Positions 1 to 16,876 are shown, counted from the stretch's first letter. The stretch is DNA of 20,633 bases from Anaerolineae bacterium (GCA_049589355.1 JBAWAP010000138.1:1-20633); one strand, 5' to 3'. Numbers and translations: made by a program. Notes: generated by a model from the sequence alone, not told the origin.

Positions 1-241
1 GGGAGAGGCATCCCGCAGCGATGAGCAACTGCCCTGGCCTCTTGGCCTCGGCCAGCTCCCGCAAGGCACCAAACGACTCCTCCTTGGCGATGTCAATGAA
101 TCCGCAGGTGTTGACGATGAGAGCCTCCGCTGAGGTCGGATCTTCAGTGGGAGCATAGCCAGCCCGTTGAAGCAGCCGGCTCATCCCTTCGGAGTCTACG
201 GTGTTCTTGCAACAGCCTAACGAAAGCAAGTAGTAGCGCAT
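1..241 (-). CDS. rimO: Radical-SAM methylthiotransferase (RimO/MiaB family), N-terminal MTTase domain only; the gene runs off the 5' edge of the window
   Basis: Minus-strand translation from ATG (241-239) gives MRYYLLSLGCCKNTVDSEGMSRLLQRAGYAPTEDPTSAEALIVNTCGFIDIAKEESFGALRELAEAKRPGQLLIAAGCL... The SLGCxKNxVDSE and NTCGFI motifs are the conserved N-terminal Cys-bearing MTTase signature, and the RimO-like 'SLGC.KN.VDSE' fits S12 methylthiotransferase. Truncated at the window edge, so absent from the ORF track. Confidence 0.6.
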   Translation of the reverse strand, partial: MRYYLLSLGCCKNTVDSEGMSRLLQRAGYAPTEDPTSAEALIVNTCGFIDIAKEESFGALRELAEAKRPGQLLIAAGCLS

Positions 242-4907: not shown

Positions 4908-4923
4908 CTGTTCACCTGCTCCC

Positions 4924-4967
4924 GCTGGACTAGAGTCCAGCGAGAGCAGTGGACTAGCGTCCACTGC
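4924..4967. terminator. Two tandem related hairpins (gctggacTAGAgtccagc and gcagtggacTAGCgtccactgc) between convergent hutH and the Cas6-like gene; probable bidirectional transcript-end structures
   Basis: Seen directly: 8-bp and 9-bp perfect stems with ggacTAG loops. The two are imperfect duplicates of one another. No clear U-tracts. Confidence 0.4.
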
Positions 4968-4992
4968 GAGCACAGGGTGAACAAATACATAA

Positions 4993-6000
4993 TCAGCTTA
5001 TCACAAAGGTACCACACCCAAAGTGGGTTTGCTTTCCGATGTGGAGGATAGATGCCAACTCAAGATAAGGGATGATGGGATGGGGGATAGACGGAAAGGT
5101 TTGTGTGCCTATCCAACGCCCTGGCCAAGTCTTGGGGGCCGGCTTGAGCCTTTTATGATGAACGGGAATGCGGGAGGCCTGTTCCATAACAGCCTGGAAG
5201 GATGCCTGTTCCTCCGCGCTCAAAACATCCCACACATCGTCGGGCTTGTGGTGTTTGCCCGGCAATAGTAGACTCATCCGGGCTATCAAGGACTCCAGTA
5301 TACTCTGTAAGGTTGGCACTTGATGAGCAGGTGTTCTATTTCGATCACGTCGTCGGTCAGTTTGGTCTTCATGGCCGGCCAAATCAAAAGGTGTTAGCCA
5401 GGTCAGACGGTCGAATATACGCTCTGGGCCTAAGTCAAAACTCAATCCTTCAGCCCATTGGACGGGGGTCGCGTGATAGCTCAGATCCAGTCGCCCGTCA
5501 CTCACGACAGGCTCCCAACGAGGTCCCCGCGCCACATAAACTGCATGGATGTCGAATCGGCCCCAGAGGACGTTCTGGCGCTGCCATTGCGGATCAGAAA
5601 CACTCCCTGCCTCCTCCAGGGCCGGCAAGATAACTTCTAGAAAAAGTCCATGATCTGCGCTCTCCCCCATCAGTTTGAGTTCCCATAGAATCAGCTCTTC
5701 CTGTCCATAGGTCTGCTTGCCCGGATAAACAAACAGTACCGCTTCAATCGGCCACGATCCTTCTGGCATCGTAGCAGGCTTTTTCTTCCCTAAAAGTGAG
5801 ATTCCACCGTATTCATCCCAGGGGGCCAGGGCTTTGTGCCAGGGACGGGCTTGATGAGTTGGAAGGCGGTTGGCAATCATGGTCCCCAGAACCAAGGAGA
5901 TCTCTGCGGATAGACATCTCGGCAACCGGACCAGCGAGCTATTGACCCGACACGCAAACAGATAACGGATGAGTTTAATAGGTTTGATAAAAGGCCACAT
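4993..6000 (-). CDS. RAMP-like protein with a C-terminal Cas6-type glycine-rich loop (putative Cas6-like RNA endonuclease), last gene of the RAMP island
   Basis: C-terminus ...LASILHIGKQTHFGCGTFVIS* (nt 5014-5046 encode HIGKQTHFGCG). This fits the Cas6 G-rich loop consensus G-h-G-[KR]-x-[TS]-x-h-G-h-G placed about 6 aa from the C-terminus. The start is uncertain: the ATG at 6000 overlaps the stop of the upstream gene by 26 nt (translational coupling) and is preferred over 6063 and 5880; none has a good SD. The 5' part of the gene has visibly lower GC (about 40% at 6001-6060). Confidence 0.45.
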   Translation of the reverse strand: MWPFIKPIKLIRYLFACRVNSSLVRLPRCLSAEISLVLGTMIANRLPTHQARPWHKALAPWDEYGGISLLGKKKPATMPEGSWPIEAVLFVYPGKQTYGQEELILWELKLMGESADHGLFLEVILPALEEAGSVSDPQWQRQNVLWGRFDIHAVYVARGPRWEPVVSDGRLDLSYHATPVQWAEGLSFDLGPERIFDRLTWLTPFDLAGHEDQTDRRRDRNRTPAHQVPTLQSILESLIARMSLLLPGKHHKPDDVWDVLSAEEQASFQAVMEQASRIPVHHKRLKPAPKTWPGRWIGTQTFPSIPHPIIPYLELASILHIGKQTHFGCGTFVIS

Positions 6001-6859
6001 AATCAACAAGCTCGTATAACAATTTGATTCGATTCTTAGGCCACTGTCGAATTCTCCAGGCATTCAGCATATCTTTGGCCTCCTGACTCAAGAACCCCAT
6101 AAATCTTCCCCAGTAAAACTGTTCCTCGCTGGTGTCCTCCAGATTCAGTAACTCGTAGAGCGACTCTTGTTCTGTGGGGCGCAAGATTGTCCGAAAGACC
6201 GCTGCCATTTCTAGCACGCTCAAGAATTCAGAAACTTCAAAGGTGAGCAATCCCTGTTGGTCCCGGGTATGGGGTTTCAGGATCTGATAGGGCGCAGAAT
6301 AGAATCGAACACGCAGTTGATCCATGGGAAACCGTGCCTCATGATGGATAGCTCTGCAGAGGACATCTCCCATACCTATCTTTTTCCCCCCTCCCGCGGT
6401 GGGAAGTACTTGGACAAGCCCCTTCAGGTCAGATCCGTGGTAGATGACGAGCTCCTGTAGCCAAGGCTTTAGCTCGCGTCTGGGCATCATCAGCAGAAAA
6501 TGGTTCTCGTCATGGACATAAGCGCCCAAGACGTGGTGATCATAAAATCCTTCACCCATTCGAAGCAACTTCGACAAGCGATTGACAAAACCCCAGATGA
6601 CGATGGATTGACGGGAGATTCTGCCCAGCTTGCGGGCTCTGGACAGAATGGCCTGGCATGATTGGCAGTAATTCTGCTCCGGGGAAGATAGACGAGGATA
6701 GAGCCAGCATCGTTGGCAAGGGCCGTCAAGAGCAGAAAAAGGCGGCCCGATCTCATCCCCAGTGGGAAAGAGATCGGGCCTGGTGGCAAGATATTCCAAG
6801 GTGGCTAACAACTCGGCGCCGGTTTGAGTACGGCGCAACCAATCAAAGCCGCTTAGCAT
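5975..6859 (-). CDS. Hypothetical protein (294 aa) with an N-terminal CxxC-x13-CxxC zinc-ribbon; translationally coupled to both the upstream multi-RAMP gene and the downstream Cas6-like gene
   Basis: ATG at 6859 overlaps the stop (6843-6845) of the 1073-aa gene by 17 nt, and its own stop (5975-5977) overlaps the candidate start of the next gene. Motif GPCQRCWLYPRLSSPEQNYCQSCQ. No family recognised by eye. Confidence 0.65.
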   Translation of the reverse strand: MLSGFDWLRRTQTGAELLATLEYLATRPDLFPTGDEIGPPFSALDGPCQRCWLYPRLSSPEQNYCQSCQAILSRARKLGRISRQSIVIWGFVNRLSKLLRMGEGFYDHHVLGAYVHDENHFLLMMPRRELKPWLQELVIYHGSDLKGLVQVLPTAGGGKKIGMGDVLCRAIHHEARFPMDQLRVRFYSAPYQILKPHTRDQQGLLTFEVSEFLSVLEMAAVFRTILRPTEQESLYELLNLEDTSEEQFYWGRFMGFLSQEAKDMLNAWRIRQWPKNRIKLLYELVDYVAFYQTY

Positions 6860-9800
6860 TCAGTGCCCTATGCAATGCTGCGTGATGATAAATGACAGCG
6901 GGCTCGATCCATTCGTCAACCTGGATGGGCACACGCCAGCTCTCTTCGGGCTCGCCAGTGTACCGCTTGGCCCAGTCAATCAGGAAGCTGTCTGGGAGAA
7001 TTTGCAGGCGTAGGCTGCCAAAGCCGAGATAGCGGTTGTTGCCCATCTTGTGAGCGAGTCCCGACTCCAGTGCCACACACCACACCAACCTTTGCAGTTC
7101 TTGTTCCTCGAGGTTCCAGAAGCGGATCGTAAAACGGGCGCGCGCACCAGGGAGTATGGCCCTGAAATAACGAGCCTGGAACGTGTCGGGTTGAAAATCA
7201 TCTAGTCGCTTGACGATGGGAGCCAGTGGGGCGTGGGTAAAGAGCCGCCAGGTCTTGCCGACGAGTAACATGGCAGCAGAACTGCCCGGCATGCTTTGCC
7301 ATTGAACTCCGGTGTACTGCCACTCACCGTAGGGATATGGTACTTTGAACCAGGCCAGTTCGGGTTTCTCGAACAGACCAAAGCTGAAAGACAAGCGCCC
7401 CATGATAGCCTGATCTGGACCCGTTCCCACCCAGCCGAACAGGCTATCTGACGGGTTCAAACGGCTAATGTCGGGGCTTGGCTCACGGGAATCGCTGGCA
7501 ATGGAATAGATGTGGCGTAGCATCCCCTTGATGCTCCGGCTGGAGAGCGCATAGACTTTGTTGGAACCTCGGTGGGCGGCCTCAGGAGGGGCCATGGCGA
7601 AGAAGTCCCAGCCATTGACGGGCCCATCGTCCAGGGTGGTTTTGAACGACGGTTCGCCGCTCTCTTGTATGTGAAGGGGGGTCAGGACCTCTGCCTCCAC
7701 GGCCAGCGTGCCACAATAGCCGCCGAAAGCCCGGTGCGAGATAAAGCCGGCACTGGCCCTGGGTGGTGTTGGGGAGACTTCTTGCTCGGGAGCGAGGGGG
7801 TAGATGGTCTGCAAGGCTTTGGTGGCTGCATCGCCCTCAAGGTCCAGTCTCTGCCAAATGCCATCCTGCGTCAGCGTCTGTTTTCCAAACAACTTCTCTC
7901 CCACACCGTCCGGATCCGCCGTTAGCCACGTGAGCTTGGACACATCCGCCTTAACCCAACCGAAACCGCTGGTCTTTTCACCGCCCAAGGGGATGTCGCC
8001 CCTTTGAAAATCCTGGAGCAAATGGGCCATTAGAGAAATCACTTCCAAGTCTTGCTCTTCAATGTCCTGAACATCCAACTGGAGTTGGAATGCAAGTTGA
8101 TCTCCATAGGCAAAGAGATAGTCGTGCTTGGCGGCCTCTATCGGCTGTCCCGTTTTGGGATCCATCTTGACCCCATCCATAGAGCACCATGCGCGTTCCG
8201 GATCCAGCGGGTCTGTGAGATAGGCGTCGGAGAAAAAGATCAGCCCCCGTTGCCCTTGAGTGCCAAAGAGACGGTTCAGCACCTCGGTGGTCTTGAGGGA
8301 CTCACCCCACAGGGTTCCTAGCACCTGCGAGGCGCGTTTTCTGAAAGCTCCTTTGATCGTGCTGCCGGGGATATAGATCTCCCAAGCTCCTTGCTCTTGC
8401 GAGGATGGCGACCACGCTAACATGCGCATGAACATGGTATCGTAGGGCTTGCCATACTTGCGGGATATCTCTCGATTGGACACGCCGCCAGCCCGAAAAT
8501 CAATGTGGTGGGGCTGGGCCAGTTCCTGGCGAGTACGATCACGATGGGCCTTGAGAAAGGCGATGAAGTTCTCGTCGTTGGTGATGCTTTTATTCAGGTT
8601 CCTGGGATGTAATATATGGCGGAATTGCACTCGACGGTGGGCATCAACGAACTCCCTCCATGTTGCAGGACGGATACCCTCTGGAACCAGGTCCGGGGCG
8701 CCCCACTGGTACTCGTCAATCTCGCCCTGGAGCAACATAGTTTTTATTCGTATGTGTTCCTCGCGGGTTGCGATCTCCGCCTCCACCCAGGCGTCGCTCT
8801 GCAGCAACCGGATTTGTTGATCCACCTGTTGGTAGAGGCGGGGGAGGACCTTCTGGCACGCGGGGGCCAGAATCTGTACCAGGGCCGCTTCGCTTTGAAT
8901 CTGCTCGGCGAGACGGTCGGCCAGCGCGACGTCTAGCCCCAGGCCATTGGCAATCTCTAGCCAAGCTTCGTAATTGAGCTGTTCGCTGGCCCGGCGCTGG
9001 CTCACCATAACCTTGAGGATACGTTTAGCCATGTTGGCCTTTTCCCCCAGGGCCTCCCTGAATGCGGCATCGGCCGCTTCTTTGCTGGAGAAAGGCTGCT
9101 CGACCAAAGGTTGAATTTGGGCAAGTACCGTTTTGGAGAGAGCATATTTCCCCTTGCCTAACTTAGCCACGGCTGCAGCCGGCAAAACCCAAACTTCGAC
9201 TTCCCCGATAGATTGCTCCCTCAGCCAAATGGCGATGATTCTCCGAAGATACTCGGCGAACTTTCGCTTCCAATCTTCCGGGCTGAGGATCGGTCCTGCC
9301 AGCCCCAGCGCCAGTCGCTCACGAATGGGGTCTGGCAGATCGCGCATCGTCTCTACCAGCAAGCGGCCCTCAATAGCAGCAAAGGAAGGCACCTCAGGGT
9401 CCACCTTGCCCCAGTTCCAGCCGACCAGAACGGGGTTCGTGGCATTAAAGGTCAAGCCCATCCTCAAATGATTGGCCCCAGGATGCAGGCGGGAAGGTGT
9501 TTCGGGTGCTGAGAACGGAAGGTCCATTTCAAGGCGAATGCGCCCCAATCCTTTGCTCTTGCCAGCCCCGAACCAGAAGCGTCCTTCTTGCAGTTCTCTT
9601 AGGGCGTAGTACAGGTGGGCGGCGTTTTCGCCTTGCTGCAGGAGCGACTCATTTACAGACAAGGTGAGATCGAAAACGGAGTTGCGAAACAACGTTTCCA
9701 TTTTGTAATTGGCGTTCGCTATCGCAGCCCAGCGGTCATCGTCCAACTTTATGCCCATGCGCAAGTCAAAGAAGCGATCCCGAGGATAACTCTCTTCCTG

Positions 9801-10064
9801 CAATTTGCACTCTACCCTAGTAATGAGCCCTTTCGGCATGGTCGAGTCGTATAATCGCAACCACATCCGGTCAAGCAGGCCAATGTTCTCGCCACGGCGC
9901 GATTGGCCGATGAAGGCATCCATCAAGGACTCAGCCGTACCCGCGATTTCCCCCGCCAGAGAGACCAGGCGATGGGTCCCGTCTCCATCTCTTGTGAACA
10001 GGGTCTTGCGTGCATTCCCTCTATAAATCGGGGATTCCGCATAAAGTTTACCTTTCAGAATCAT
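6843..10064 (-). CDS. Single-polypeptide multi-RAMP effector: three Cas7-type (Csm3/Cmr4-like) RAMP domains plus an inserted roughly 300-aa alpha-helical (Cas11-like?) region. A gRAMP / Cas7-11-like protein, but much smaller (1073 aa)
   Basis: Domain 1 (aa about 1-185): LKGKLYAESPIYRGN (compare with Cas7 beta1 'tPLHIGsG') and the G-rich loop FGAGKSKGLGRIRLE (nt 9543-9569). Domain 2 (aa about 515-705): PHHIDFRAGG, IPGSTIKGAFR (nt 8340-8372, the textbook IPGSS.KGalR loop of Csm3/Cmr4), LFG, and the G-rich loop LGGEKTSGFGWVKA (nt 7959-7988). Domain 3 (aa about 785-1030): LTPLHIQESG (nt 7656-7682), ALSSRSIKGMLR (7515-7544), LFGWVG, YLGFGSLRL (7011-7031). AGGAGG RBS 4 nt upstream of the ATG at 10064. 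Confidence 0.8.
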   Translation of the reverse strand: MILKGKLYAESPIYRGNARKTLFTRDGDGTHRLVSLAGEIAGTAESLMDAFIGQSRRGENIGLLDRMWLRLYDSTMPKGLITRVECKLQEESYPRDRFFDLRMGIKLDDDRWAAIANANYKMETLFRNSVFDLTLSVNESLLQQGENAAHLYYALRELQEGRFWFGAGKSKGLGRIRLEMDLPFSAPETPSRLHPGANHLRMGLTFNATNPVLVGWNWGKVDPEVPSFAAIEGRLLVETMRDLPDPIRERLALGLAGPILSPEDWKRKFAEYLRRIIAIWLREQSIGEVEVWVLPAAAVAKLGKGKYALSKTVLAQIQPLVEQPFSSKEAADAAFREALGEKANMAKRILKVMVSQRRASEQLNYEAWLEIANGLGLDVALADRLAEQIQSEAALVQILAPACQKVLPRLYQQVDQQIRLLQSDAWVEAEIATREEHIRIKTMLLQGEIDEYQWGAPDLVPEGIRPATWREFVDAHRRVQFRHILHPRNLNKSITNDENFIAFLKAHRDRTRQELAQPHHIDFRAGGVSNREISRKYGKPYDTMFMRMLAWSPSSQEQGAWEIYIPGSTIKGAFRKRASQVLGTLWGESLKTTEVLNRLFGTQGQRGLIFFSDAYLTDPLDPERAWCSMDGVKMDPKTGQPIEAAKHDYLFAYGDQLAFQLQLDVQDIEEQDLEVISLMAHLLQDFQRGDIPLGGEKTSGFGWVKADVSKLTWLTADPDGVGEKLFGKQTLTQDGIWQRLDLEGDAATKALQTIYPLAPEQEVSPTPPRASAGFISHRAFGGYCGTLAVEAEVLTPLHIQESGEPSFKTTLDDGPVNGWDFFAMAPPEAAHRGSNKVYALSSRSIKGMLRHIYSIASDSREPSPDISRLNPSDSLFGWVGTGPDQAIMGRLSFSFGLFEKPELAWFKVPYPYGEWQYTGVQWQSMPGSSAAMLLVGKTWRLFTHAPLAPIVKRLDDFQPDTFQARYFRAILPGARARFTIRFWNLEEQELQRLVWCVALESGLAHKMGNNRYLGFGSLRLQILPDSFLIDWAKRYTGEPEESWRVPIQVDEWIEPAVIYHHAALHRALNAKRL

Positions 10065-10174
10065 GGCACCCTCCTTTGTTTTGGTCAGGTCGTCTTTGGC
10101 CGGGTGGTCGAGTGGTCAGGTGGTCTGAAAACCGAGGGGCCACTTGACCAGGGACCATCCGACTATCTGACCAT

Positions 10175-10203
10175 ATTGTACATCAAAGTTGGACACCGGT
10201 CAA
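10175..10203 (-). promoter_or_regulatory. Near-consensus sigma70-type promoter for the multi-RAMP operon: TTGACC-17-TACAAT on the minus strand
   Basis: Minus-strand read ...tttgaccggtgtccaactttgatgtacaatatgg... The -35 is at 10198-10203, the -10 at 10175-10180, and the spacer is exactly 17 nt. The predicted TSS is near 10168, leaving a roughly 100-nt leader before the ATG at 10064. Confidence 0.5.
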
Positions 10204-10249: not shown

Positions 10250-11311
10250 CTATGGAGATTCGGCTGGCTTTTGCACTCTGCCCCATTGTCCCTCTCCACC
10301 CTTTATGTCAAATCTTATGCCCAGGAACTGCTCTACCACCCAAACATTGGTCAACAAGTGCATGGTGATTTCGCAAGTGGTAAAAGCTGACGGGCCAGGG
10401 GCCAGAGCCATAGGGAGAATCAACTGATCGGCGAGGTGCTTGTCTAAGCAGGCACCGCTCTGGTGATACTCTATGAATTCGCGGCAAGCTTCCTCAGCCA
10501 CCTTCTCGGCAGGCTTGCCGCGCTCTCCCAGAGACGAGAAGCCGGCCACCGCGTGCTCATACTCGGCTGCAAGAAAGACGACGGTACCCTGGCCTGGTGA
10601 GGGAGCATCAACGATCTCGATCTGAGGGTCGAAGCCGCGCTTCCGCAGGCATTCCTCCGCTCGCTTCTTTTGCCTCTGACCAACGTGAGCAGGTAGGTTC
10701 GAGGTAGCGGAGATTCCCCAGAGGCGCTTCAATTCACCCCGTTCGACCAAATCCAGGCCAGATAGATAGCTTTCCTTTCGGCCCCTGATCAAGGCAGTCA
10801 TCTCCCCCCCACCTATCGGGTACCAACCCCACCTCTCGATCTCGGCTCTCGTTTCGACTCCCATGTATGCCAGGGTAGGCAGGTAGACGTGCCTGAGGTA
10901 GTGAAAGGGGGGGCTCCAGGCTACGTGGGTGCCACCACGCATCGTCAGGCGGGATTGGCCGGGAGCGAAAGCCAAGGGCAGCAGCAGGGTCTGGAAGACC
11001 AAGCTGGTTGCGCCAGCGCTGCCGCCTTTGCGGGCCTCGGCTACATCGAAAGAGTATTCCCCAGCCCGAGGTGACGACAGAGGCCTGAAAGTCAGGGTTA
11101 GCGAGCCCAACTCTGCACCCTCTAGCTCAGCATCGCAGATTTGAGCTATCGCCCGAGCCCCTGTGAGGTGTTGGGCCTGTAGACCAGGTTTGCGACGCTT
11201 GGCACGGATGTTCTCAATGCGCAAAGGTTCCCCCAAGAGAGCAGAAAGGGTCAAGGAGGTACGCAAGACCTGGCCACCTCCCTCGCCATAAGAGCCGTTG
11301 ATAACTATCAT
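10250..11311 (-). CDS. rtcA: RNA 3'-terminal phosphate cyclase
   Basis: N-terminal INGSYGEGGGQVLRTSLTLS matches the RtcA signature DG..GEGGGQILR. HLADQLILPMALA aligns with the E. coli RtcA active-site region (YLADQLVLPMALA, catalytic His). 353 aa. No rtcB or rtcR in the window. Confidence 0.9.
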   Translation of the reverse strand: MIVINGSYGEGGGQVLRTSLTLSALLGEPLRIENIRAKRRKPGLQAQHLTGARAIAQICDAELEGAELGSLTLTFRPLSSPRAGEYSFDVAEARKGGSAGATSLVFQTLLLPLAFAPGQSRLTMRGGTHVAWSPPFHYLRHVYLPTLAYMGVETRAEIERWGWYPIGGGEMTALIRGRKESYLSGLDLVERGELKRLWGISATSNLPAHVGQRQKKRAEECLRKRGFDPQIEIVDAPSPGQGTVVFLAAEYEHAVAGFSSLGERGKPAEKVAEEACREFIEYHQSGACLDKHLADQLILPMALAPGPSAFTTCEITMHLLTNVWVVEQFLGIRFDIKGGEGQWGRVQKPAESP

Positions 11312-13883: not shown

Positions 13884-14399
13884 TCACCATCCTTTTATGA
13901 ACTCTCGCCACTCTTTGTTTTCTTTCAAGTATCGGCCGAAGAGATAGCTGCTCGTGGCACGGGGTTCATAGGGATGCTGCAGCAACTGCATGTGTGCCTC
14001 CTGGAGAGCCCGGCCGCCCTTTCGACGGTTACAGGCTGGACAGGCGCTCACCAAATTTTCCCACTCATGCTGCCCTCCATGATGGCGTGGGACGACGTGA
14101 TCCACGGTCAAGTTCCTTGATTCTCGGCCACAATATTGGCAGGTGTAGTTGTCCCGCCGGAAGATCTCCTTCTTAGTGAGCTTCACCCGAGGGTAAGGTC
14201 GCCTGATCATATAGCCTAGCTTTATCACCGAGGGGCACAAAAAGGTAGTGGAGGGAGTACGGATGACCCCTCGGCTATTCTCCAAAACTTCGGCCTTACC
14301 CACCACGACCAAGATGATAGCCCGCTTGACGTTGCAGACGTTCAGCGGTTCGTAGTTTAAGTTGAGGACAAGAACTGGGGAATCTAACAGGCTGTTCAA
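13884..14399 (-). CDS. HNH endonuclease (McrA-like)
   Basis: CQYCG...DHVVPRHHGG...NLVSACPACNRRKG is the HNH motif with the Zn-binding Cys pairs. TTG start at 14399 with a GAGGAG RBS 6 nt upstream. Confidence 0.8.
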   Translation of the reverse strand: MNSLLDSPVLVLNLNYEPLNVCNVKRAIILVVVGKAEVLENSRGVIRTPSTTFLCPSVIKLGYMIRRPYPRVKLTKKEIFRRDNYTCQYCGRESRNLTVDHVVPRHHGGQHEWENLVSACPACNRRKGGRALQEAHMQLLQHPYEPRATSSYLFGRYLKENKEWREFIKGW

Positions 14400-15752: not shown

Positions 15753-15896
15753 TGTCATTGCGAGCCCTTCGATACCTCAGGGTAAACTCCGCAAAGCAAT
15801 CTCCTCTTGTGTCATTGCGAGCGACCGTAGGGAGCGAAGCAATCCCCTCCGTCGCGGGCCGAGGATTGCTTCGTCGCTGTGCTCCTCGCAATGACA
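15753..15896. repeat. Tandem MITE/REP-like palindromic element: a half copy (15753-15806) plus a full nested-hairpin copy (15810-15896) built on tgtcattgcgag ... gcgaagcaatcc / ggattgcttcg ... ctcgcaatgaca
   Basis: Seen directly. The 12-bp outer arms 15810-15821 and 15885-15896 are reverse complements, as are the inner arms gcgaagcaatcc and ggattgcttcgc. The half copy repeats tgtcattgcgagc and gcaaagcaatc. The element sits between the KTSC start and the stop of the 15899-16876 gene. Confidence 0.75.
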
Positions 15897-15898
15897 TT

Positions 15899-16876
15899 TT
15901 ACGACATTTCTCTCACCGTCCGATAGGCTGCCAGACAGCTCTCCAACTCCGCTTCGCTGATCTCGCCTCGCTCATGCGCCGCTAGAGTTCGACGCGTCTC
16001 TGCTCGCAGCCCCAGTCGCACAATACGGCGCACGGCCCACTGATAGAAATGGCTATAGTGCTTCTCGAAGAGTAGATAGCGGCTTCTCCACAAAGCCACA
16101 AACATCTCTCCTCGTACCTGCTTGGTGCTCTTTGCCACGTGGTGCACAACCTCGGCCCTGGGCACGCAGTAGATACCCCAGCCAGCTTTTTTCATCCTCA
16201 TGCACCAATCTATCTCCTCGCAATAAATGAAGAACCTCTCGTCCAGGAGGCCCACCTCTTGGATGGCCTCCCCTCGCACCATCAGCGCCGCCCCAAGGGG
16301 GTGGTCAATAGGGAAAGGCTCCCCGCGCTCGTAGAGCCTGCGGGGGTAGCGACCGTTGAGGTGGGAGCCTAGCAGGCGATAGTGGAGGGGGAAAAAGTCG
16401 AGGAAAGCCTGGGCCAGGGTTGGGAAGGCAAAGGCCGAGTGTTGTAGGCGGTCATCGGGGTAGAGCAGCTTGGCTCCGGCCACACCGGCGTGGGGGTTCT
16501 CGTCCAGGAAACGCACCATCGTGGTGAGGGCATCATCGAGCACCTCGGTGTCGGGGTTCAGCAGAAGAACGTAGCGGGGCAGTTCGTGAGTCCCAGCCGA
16601 GGGAAACCCCATCGCTTGCAGAGCCTGGTTGTTAGCAGCGGCGAAGCCGGCGTTTGTCTCGTTGGCGATGAGCCTCGCCTGGGGGAAGCGCCCTCGCACC
16701 ATCTCGGCGCTTCCGTCCGTCGAGGCGTTATCCACCACCCACACCTCGCCCGTCAGATTCGAGCTCCTCAGGCTTTCGTACACCGAGGTCAGGCAACCCT
16801 CCAGCAACTCCCGCACGTTCCAACTGACGATCACAATGGCCAAGTCCAAAGGCAACCCTACTCCCTGCAAAAACAA
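15899..16876 (-). CDS. Family 2 glycosyltransferase (rhamnosyl/GlcNAc-transferase-like)
   Basis: AIVIVSWNVRELLEGCLTSV...VVDNASTDGS...LLNPD is the GT2 signature. The annotated start is a TTG; the true start is uncertain. TATAAT (16901-16906, minus strand) lies just upstream. Confidence 0.75.
   Translation of the reverse strand: MFLQGVGLPLDLAIVIVSWNVRELLEGCLTSVYESLRSSNLTGEVWVVDNASTDGSAEMVRGRFPQARLIANETNAGFAAANNQALQAMGFPSAGTHELPRYVLLLNPDTEVLDDALTTMVRFLDENPHAGVAGAKLLYPDDRLQHSAFAFPTLAQAFLDFFPLHYRLLGSHLNGRYPRRLYERGEPFPIDHPLGAALMVRGEAIQEVGLLDERFFIYCEEIDWCMRMKKAGWGIYCVPRAEVVHHVAKSTKQVRGEMFVALWRSRYLLFEKHYSHFYQWAVRRIVRLGLRAETRRTLAAHERGEISEAELESCLAAYRTVREMS

Follow-up and report, generated by a model that had tools for sequence, protein, structure and literature searches.

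The last gene of a three-gene module in Anaerolineae DNA encodes Cas6i, identified by profile matches as the Cas6 endoribonuclease of CRISPR-Cas subtype III-I. No canonical CRISPR array lies beside this module or beside any of 164 related loci. We consider it likely, with a probability of about 0.7, that Cas6i cleaves pre-crRNA for the Cas7-11i/Cas10i effector and that the crRNAs come from arrays elsewhere in the genome. We are far surer of what Cas6i is than of where its RNA comes from. The DNA analyzed, here called the window, is a stretch of 20,633 nt (GCA_049589355.1 JBAWAP010000138.1:1-20633). The features discussed below are as follows:

10175 to 10203, minus strand: sigma-70-type promoter, TTGACC-17 nt-TACAAT, the best match between 4800 and 11500 (10 of 12 positions)
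10065 to 10174, minus strand: 5' UTR of cas7-11i, with ATGGTCAG-type octamers and then their inverse (CTGACCAC-type), forming a long imperfect hairpin, and the ribosome-binding site AAGGAGG
6843 to 10064, minus strand: cas7-11i, 1073 aa, the single-protein gRAMP effector of III-I, with fused Cas7 domains and Cas11
5975 to 6859, minus strand: cas10i, 294 aa, a truncated and highly diverged Cas10 derivative; overlaps cas7-11i by 17 nt
4993 to 6000, minus strand: cas6i, the III-I Cas6 endoribonuclease, 335 aa from the probable start ATG at 6000; shares 26 nt with cas10i
5650 to 5652, minus strand: codon of His117 (in SADHGLFLE), the sole invariant His of the N-terminal RRM and a candidate catalytic residue
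5011 to 5043, minus strand: glycine-rich loop HIGKQTHFGCG, recognized by translation, secondary structure, and invariance in 81 homologues
4908 to 4992, minus strand: Y-shaped double hairpin, intergenic, between the convergent cas6i and hutH

An initial annotation, made from the DNA alone, had placed a gene for 335 to 356 aa at 4993 to 6063. This minus-strand open reading frame exists and runs for 356 aa from its first ATG. However, the true start is probably the ATG at 6000 (M22 of the long frame), which gives 335 aa, because the homologues are about 335 aa long and begin with MWPFIKP and because the NCBIfam model NF049959 aligns from residue 23 of the 356-aa frame. Among the best 120 of 753 homologues in the public protein collection, nearly all are 327 to 345 aa long with the N terminus MWPFIKP. 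Residues are numbered below from M22 unless the long frame is named. The start also bears on base composition. The GC content of 6001 to 6060 is indeed 0.40, as had been noted, and such a low value occurs in only 2% of 60-nt windows. With the start corrected, however, this segment is the 3' end of cas10i (5975 to 6859) and not the region encoding the N terminus of Cas6i. Overall, the GC content of the module (0.55) does not stand out from that of the remaining window (0.556). A protein identical to the window Cas6i is already present in public assemblies (P0001).

Three independent profile libraries agree that the protein is a Cas6. NCBIfam NF049959 ("type III-I CRISPR precrRNA processing endoribonuclease Cas6") matches it with 317.8 bits against a cutoff of 160. 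Pfam PF10040 matches residues 223 to 352 of the long frame with 30.6 bits (gathering score, 25), and the generic Cas6 model PDLC01477 of the 2023 PADLOC set matches residues 98 to 334 with an E value of 9.2e-12. An AlphaFold2 model built with 29 homologues (mean pLDDT, 76.5; pTM, 0.76) consists of two β-α-β-β-α-β units, i.e., tandem ferredoxin-like (RRM) folds. The Cas6 identity that had been proposed for the last gene of the island is borne out by the profile matches and by the two-RRM model, and the gene does close the cas7-11i/cas10i/cas6i operon. The interpretation given in the initial annotation is, overall, supported in part.

Cas6i shares with canonical Cas6 (PF10040/TIGR01877) the double ferredoxin/RRM fold and a glycine-rich loop before the last strand. 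It differs in being about 85 aa longer, in having a conserved His at the start of helix α2, and in lacking an adjoining array. The unusual length, which had been noted against a typical Cas6 size of about 250 aa, is explained by three insertions. The first RRM contains an additional helical pair (residues 32 to 65), the second contains a helical insertion (residues 253 to 276), and the third insertion is a variable, basic, low-confidence linker (approximately residues 206 to 230). A search of PDB sequences with Cas6i matched no solved Cas6 and returned only spurious superoxide dismutase matches. We compared Cas6i with solved Cas6 structures from Streptococcus thermophilus (6fjw), Thermus thermophilus (4c98 and 4c8y), Sulfolobus solfataricus (3zfv and 4ill), and Pyrococcus furiosus (3i4h). 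There was no detectable sequence similarity, and identity in structural alignments was 10 to 17%. Cas6i is thus a very divergent Cas6, and its family is compact and isolated in sequence space: a search of 1.84 billion cluster representatives gave 131 matches. Within that family the window protein is an ordinary member.

The glycine-rich loop HIGKQTHFGCG is followed only by TFVIS and the stop codon, so that the product ends in ...LELASILHIGKQTHFGCGTFVIS. The loop had been placed about 6 aa from the C terminus at nt 5014 to 5046; it is there, 5 aa from the end, and its coordinates are shifted by one codon, to 5011 to 5043. It spans residues 320 to 330 of the C-terminal RRM, between the last helix (residues 307 to 318) and the last strand (residues 332 to 334). 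We assessed conservation in an alignment of 81 sequences, the window protein and translations from 80 genome loci, in which identity falls to about 45%. The loci are from Chloroflexota and Desulfobacterota, with a small number from other phyla. H320, G322, H326, G328, and G330 are invariant in all 81, C329 and F332 are 99% conserved, and T331 is 96% conserved; such conservation speaks against a fortuitous motif.

The initial annotation had suggested searching for a duplicated RRM fold and for a conserved His in the first RRM, and it would have been refuted by the lack of an RRM fold and of loop conservation, which is clearly not the case. The model has two RRMs, the loop is invariant in the 81 sequences, and the first RRM contains one invariant His, His117, which is preceded by a nearly invariant D116 (98%). 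E102, E107, E129, and R241 are likewise 100% conserved, and R12, Y13, and K95 are 99% conserved. His117 is located at the start of helix α2 (residues 117 to 133). In several characterized Cas6 enzymes, the catalytic His is near β1/α1. An equivalent of His117 is present in only four of the seven nearest outgroup Cas6 proteins. His117 may be the catalytic residue, but its position on helix α2 and its patchy presence in the outgroups argue against that role. Pairwise dN/dS values of 0.14 to 0.23 between cas6i and eight relatives indicate that the gene is under purifying selection.

The nearest outgroup Cas6 proteins (P0223, P0225, P0237, P0241, and P0248) are about 300 to 320 aa long, match PF10040, and carry the loop LHIGKGTRxGxG. 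They share with Cas6i the block FE-RLFG-A-H-LF-RFLPA (Cas6i residues 105 to 127). However, they score 25 to 61 bits, below the Cas6i cutoff, and their first RRM carries a Cys cluster, FPC-x5-C-x2-C.

The two other proteins of the module were identified in the same way. Cas7-11i matches NCBIfam NF049957 with 1933 bits (cutoff, 800) over residues 1 to 1072 of 1073. It also matches Pfam RAMPs (4e-21) and the PADLOC Cas7_IIId/Csm3 models, and its N-terminal part weakly matches Csx10, the Cas5 of III-D (E value, 0.0013). Cas10i matches NF049958 over its full length with 492.5 bits (cutoff, 175); it had no match in Pfam or PADLOC, as expected from its published description (PMC12669027). On the basis of these matches, we assign the window module to CRISPR-Cas subtype III-I; its genes run cas7-11i, cas10i, cas6i. 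The module is compact (about 5.1 kb), with overlapping genes and a single promoter, and contains no separate cas5 gene by Pfam, NCBIfam, or PADLOC profiles. The promoter lies 5' of cas7-11i and separates it from the upstream rtcA. Of 149 related loci, 46 have a TTGACN-16..18-TANANT box 40 to 217 nt upstream of cas7-11i, compared with 6 of the 141 downstream flanks. Elsewhere the window encodes housekeeping functions, namely RodZ, ribosomal protein L9, histidine ammonia-lyase, RtcA, HPF, a phosphotyrosine phosphatase, and glycosyltransferases.

Subtype III-I, a rare variant, was first described by Makarova et al. (Nat Microbiol 2025; PMC12669027), and our literature searches on III-I found this classification paper only and no experimental work on any III-I system. 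According to that paper, III-I occurs in more than 160 genomes, mostly of Thermodesulfobacteriota and Chloroflexota. The effector is a fusion of three Cas7 domains and Cas11; it resembles the Cas7-11 of III-E but evolved from III-D on its own and is without that protein's N-terminal Cas7 domain. Cas10i is described as extremely diverged and as lacking the N-terminal polymerase/cyclase domain. Cas7-11i has conserved catalytic aspartates, from which crRNA-guided RNA cleavage was predicted, and the published AF3 model of the complex contains Cas7-11i, Cas10i, and crRNA but no Cas6 (PMC12669027). The closest public relatives of the window Cas6i are from Anaerolineae MAGs, in agreement with the published range of Chloroflexota and Thermodesulfobacteriota (PMC12669027).

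We collected 164 related loci. We kept 80 of 126 loci from a one-genome-per-species scan and 80 of 220 from a metagenome scan with a Cas7-11i alignment, and exact-protein look-ups added four. Some contigs are common to the genome and metagenome sets. In nearly all loci uncut by a contig end, the three genes adjoin one another in a constant order and overlap at their ends, and in nearly all loci cas6i and cas10i overlap by 20 to 26 nt. This overlapping arrangement of cas6i is probably translationally coupled. Three loci (L045, L059, and L077) have an intact cas6i with no effector on the same contig stretch. The reference locus of III-I, in Desulfonema magnum 4be13 (L068), encodes a Cas6 of the same family that is 51% identical to the window protein, and it shares the gene order, the glycine-rich loop, and His117. 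Its genes are separated by MITE and repeat insertions, whereas those of the window overlap directly. We found no essential difference between the window and the reference III-I locus; the rtcA and hutH flanks are specific to the clade of the window.

The neighbors vary from clade to clade. There are genes for a penicillin-binding protein and α2-macroglobulin in L081 to L083, for ABC transporters in L084, and for RimO, a prenyl synthase, and a glucan phosphorylase in L059. We considered rtcA as a component of the system and rejected it, since it adjoins the module in the closest clade only. Neither cas1, cas2, nor known accessory genes are among the neighbors of the annotated loci, and the plasmid and viral collections searched contained no homologue.

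We searched the window for a CRISPR array with TRF, a repeat search, a permissive Rfam scan, and a k-mer array detector, and found none, as the initial annotation had stated for the island. In control runs, the k-mer detector recovered a synthetic four-repeat array and the real 13-repeat array of E. coli K-12. There was also no canonical array at the 164 related loci, in about 1.3 Mb of flanks of up to 10 kb (about 0.57 Mb upstream and 0.73 Mb downstream), many of them on short MAG or metagenome contigs that are prone to array loss. Therefore, in about 165 copies of III-I there is no array beside the cas6 gene, a result that applies to the loci only. Adjacency to an array is typical of Cas6 genes but does not define them.

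Several array-like candidates were inspected and rejected. A 56-nt tandem repeat in the D. magnum locus has no unique spacers, the apparent array of L034 turned out to be a repeat of 45 nt within the coding sequence of an S1-like protein, and the candidate of L114 consists of hairpins spaced by 40 nt at a contig end. Two-copy repeats are present near the modules of L007, L012, L057, L060, and L068. The two-copy repeats read in detail (L007, L059, and L068) are inverted-repeat or MITE-associated, and the duplications in L007 and L068 have no CRISPR-like spacers. A contig end lies within 1.1 kb upstream of cas7-11i in 18 of 69 genome loci, a place where an array might have collapsed in assembly. 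However, these ends have no common repeat and are mostly ordinary genes, and so they do not point to collapsed arrays.

We also looked for a conserved non-coding RNA beside the module. TRF reported a period of 8 at 10104 to 10125, within the cas7-11i 5' UTR, whose hairpin has a fold energy of -39 kcal/mol and a z score of only -1.8. This octamer hairpin is found in some close relatives (L002, L004, L006, L009, and L010) and is missing from others. Inverted heptamer and octamer repeats are common across the flanks, with 25 far from modules versus 7 near them. The module can probably do without this hairpin, and we rejected it as a conserved RNA partner, because only some close relatives have it and such repeat hairpins are generic in these genomes.

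At the other end, the double hairpin at 4908 to 4992 is made of two 24-nt units, GTGGAC-GCTA-GTCCAC and CTGGAC-TCTA-GTCCAG. TRF reported it as 2 x 24 nt, and it has a fold energy of -50.2 kcal/mol (z score, -7.1). It is unique in the window, and relatives have different palindromes or repeats in its place. We rejected it as a mini-array 3' of cas6i (2 x 24 nt, 4926 to 4972), since the two adjacent hairpins form one structure that is replaced in relatives; it is probably a terminator-like or REP-like element. A GTTCCCA..TGGGAAC hairpin near the module in L032, L059, and L068 lies inside MITEs with GGTGTAATTAAAAGTG terminal repeats. All-against-all comparison of the 400-nt flanks found conservation within close clades only, and no conserved non-coding partner RNA was evident.

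III-I shares the absence of an array with other type III loci. Subtype III-G loci and most III-B, III-C, III-E, and III-F loci also lack arrays and adaptation genes. In III-E, Cas7-11 processes its own pre-crRNA through the N-terminal Cas7 domain. Its effector, Cas7-11e (gRAMP), is like that of III-I a single protein with multiple Cas7 domains, and Cas7-11i partly matches the III-E model. No neighbors of the TPR-CHAT or Csx29-31 type were seen at the III-I loci where annotated. Both subtypes are derived from III-D, but III-I, unlike III-E, has a Cas10 remnant and a separate Cas6, and its effector has no N-terminal Cas7 domain (PMC12669027). This absence would explain why III-I retains a separate Cas6, because in III-E pre-crRNA is processed by the very domain that III-I lacks. 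The missing domain thus offers a coherent reason for the strict retention of cas6i and for the overlapping genes. For array-less type III loci, the classification paper infers that crRNA comes from elsewhere in trans, and most type III systems apparently take their Cas6 from another locus as well (PMC12669027). III-I, unlike most of them, retains its own strongly constrained Cas6. It is unusual for a private Cas6 to be strictly kept without a private array, since type III systems that borrow crRNAs usually borrow Cas6 too (PMC12669027).

We suggest the following scenario. The C-terminal glycine-rich loop of Cas6i would hold the repeat RNA, and the invariant His117 of the first RRM may take part in metal-independent cleavage. 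The products would then be loaded onto Cas7-11i, which would work with the Cas10 remnant, Cas10i. The crRNAs would be supplied in trans from arrays elsewhere in the genome, because there is no array at the window or at the related loci, nor are there adaptation genes where neighbors were annotated. We infer this last step by exclusion.

Other readings have to be weighed against this scenario. The initial annotation had raised a Cas5/Cmr3-like identity for the protein. Its 335 aa fall within the size range of Cmr3 and Csm4, and Cas5-family proteins likewise have two RRMs and glycine-rich loops. However, all the profile matches are to Cas6, and no Cas5, Csm4, or Cmr3 model matched at an E value of ≤1 in any library searched, nor were Cas5-family subunits the most similar in structure, so that we consider a Cas5/Csm4/Cmr3-type subunit in place of a Cas6 very improbable. 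A Cas6 that acts mainly as a stable part of the effector is a more serious, if still unlikely, alternative, and one that is compatible with the main explanation. Such a protein would bind the handle or hairpin of the guide, with or without cleaving it, and would be Cas5-like in replacing the missing Cas5 (Csm4/Cmr3/Csx10) beside Cas10i. The module has no cas5 gene of its own, and cas6i is kept in essentially every locus despite the lack of a nearby array. The 20- to 26-nt overlap with cas10i suggests coupled, stoichiometric expression, and the protein, with its three insertions, exceeds the size of a stand-alone Cas6. On the other hand, the weak Csx10 match in the N-terminal part of Cas7-11i suggests that the effector may already include a fused Cas5-like part, solo cas6i genes with no effector on the same contig stretch exist, and the published III-I complex was modeled without Cas6 (PMC12669027).

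It is also conceivable, but in our judgment improbable, that III-I uses no CRISPR arrays at all. The transcript cut by Cas6i would then be a non-CRISPR one, the enzyme would either generate guides from it or act as a stand-alone RNase, and the module would be an exapted derivative of a CRISPR system. This would fit the count of 0 canonical arrays in the window and within the searched flanks of the 164 loci, the lack of cas1 and cas2 where annotated, the intact solo cas6i genes, and the location of the module among housekeeping genes with no homologues on plasmids or viral contigs. However, there is no conserved non-coding element beside the module that could be the substrate, the flanks are conserved in close clades only, and the nearby hairpins are MITEs or generic short tandem repeats. 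Furthermore, the catalytic aspartates of Cas7-11i fit ordinary crRNA-guided RNA cleavage, and many array-less type III loci work with crRNAs in trans (PMC12669027). Taken broadly, we see only a slim chance that Cas6i acts on something other than CRISPR repeats, whether it makes guides from a cellular or invader transcript or serves as the handle binder of an unconventionally loaded effector. If that were true, III-I would be a CRISPR-array-independent RNA-guided or RNA-sensing system. Processing of pre-crRNA supplied in trans is still the reading that we prefer.

The gene family has already been named, published, and covered by a curated model, and so the value of the finding in itself is modest; III-I has been described only computationally. 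The module, of about 5 kb, targets RNA by prediction with one large effector and two small proteins, a design akin to that of Cas7-11, and it could interest tool developers once its guide requirements are known. What the survey adds is quantity: III-I loci are consistently free of arrays and yet keep a dedicated Cas6 under purifying selection. The absence of arrays over about 165 loci is the one aspect that may be of specialist interest.

Genes and structured elements lie on both sides of the subtype III-I module in the window:

4908 to 4992, Y-shaped double hairpin between the convergent genes cas6i and hutH (-50 kcal/mol, z -7)
10065 to 10174, minus strand, octamer hairpin in the cas7-11i 5' UTR, seen in the sequence
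10250 to 11311, minus strand, rtcA, RNA 3'-terminal phosphate cyclase (Pfam RTC, 2e-81)
13884 to 14399, minus strand, stand-alone HNH endonuclease of 171 aa (Pfam HNH, 5e-17)
15795 to 15911, palindromic element, REP- or MITE-like, with arms GTGTCATTGCGAG...CTCGCAATGACA, between two glycosyltransferase genes

The rtcA gene is directly upstream of the module and on the same strand. Its enzymology is suggestive, because cleavage by Cas6 leaves cyclic-phosphate ends. We found rtcA next to the module only in the closest clade of related loci (e.g., L002 to L005, L008 to L011, L086, and L087). Therefore, we rejected rtcA as a component of the system and attribute its position to synteny. The HNH endonuclease gene, located about 2.6 kb from rtcA, is surrounded by housekeeping genes and shows no evident connection with the module.

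Several related loci are variants. In L045, L059, and L077, cas6i is intact and its neighbors are housekeeping genes; neither cas7-11i nor cas10i was found on the contig stretch around it. L054 has cas10i and cas6i, with cas7-11i not detectable. We did not detect cas6i within about 3 kb downstream of cas10i in L106, or either cas10i or cas6i within 1.9 kb downstream of cas7-11i in L134. Cas6i, the Cas6 of the module, has as its nearest outgroup a few Cas6 proteins with lengths of about 300 to 320 aa (P0223, P0225, P0237, P0241, P0244, and P0248). In most of them, a Cys cluster (FPC-x5-C-x2-C...C-x-Y) is inserted in the first RRM, and this cluster is possibly a zinc site.

The double hairpin downstream of cas6i has a U-tract on neither strand. 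It occurs once in the window and is missing from the relatives, in which the equivalent position is taken by other palindromes or by octamer repeats. Therefore, the site 3' of cas6i appears to be an insertion hot spot for such elements. The palindrome between the glycosyltransferase genes, present in one copy in the window, is found immediately 3' of cas6i in several relatives (L002, L009, and L010).

Structured and repeated elements in related loci are as follows:

L012 5530 to 5640 and L016 10990 to 11085, homologous structured leader downstream of cas6i
L059 4125 to 4281 and 4382 to 4478, L068 (the reference locus, from Desulfonema magnum) 8484 to 8590 and 4989 to 5012, and L032 157 to 180, MITE-like elements or hairpins near III-I modules
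L068 1076 to 1792, 56-nt tandem repeat in 12 copies, about 3.4 kb upstream of cas7-11i
L068 9748 to 9927, GGGGCGA heptamer in about 19 copies, between cas10i and cas6i
L045 2450 to 2890, octamer hairpin of about 440 nt in Desulfobacterales bacterium HSG2, upstream of the solo cas6i and abutting its ATG

The leader in L012 and L016 forms a long stem around an inner hairpin. The gene that follows it encodes a putative secreted protein or lipoprotein, and both the GGAGGAG ribosome-binding site and the ATG of this gene are covered by the 3' arm of the leader. The leader appears to be an element that regulates this neighbor gene in cis. The MITE-like elements have terminal inverted repeats GGTGTAATTAAAAGTG, and the hairpins read CTCGTTCCCAAAC-NNN-GTTTGGGAACGAG. 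Their hosts are two Desulfobacterales genomes and one contig binned as Chloroflexota, and six matches were observed near modules versus about 0.06 expected by chance. The 56-nt tandem repeat of L068 lacks unique spacers.

In the cas7-11i 5' UTR, a run of about five ATGGTCAG-like octamers precedes about six inverse octamers of the CTGACCAC type, and together they give a long imperfect hairpin. The octamer copy number differs between the close relatives L002, L004, L006, L009, and L010, and the element is missing from other relatives. In the L045 hairpin, dozens of GGTTGACG/GGTTGGCG octamers precede CCGTAAAC/CCGCCAAC octamers. Similar inverted blocks of heptamers or octamers are scattered across the flanks of many loci. 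Therefore, the octamer hairpin of the cas7-11i 5' UTR looks like a genome-wide intergenic feature in these bacteria, to which the TAACTGA repeats of Beggiatoaceae may be comparable.
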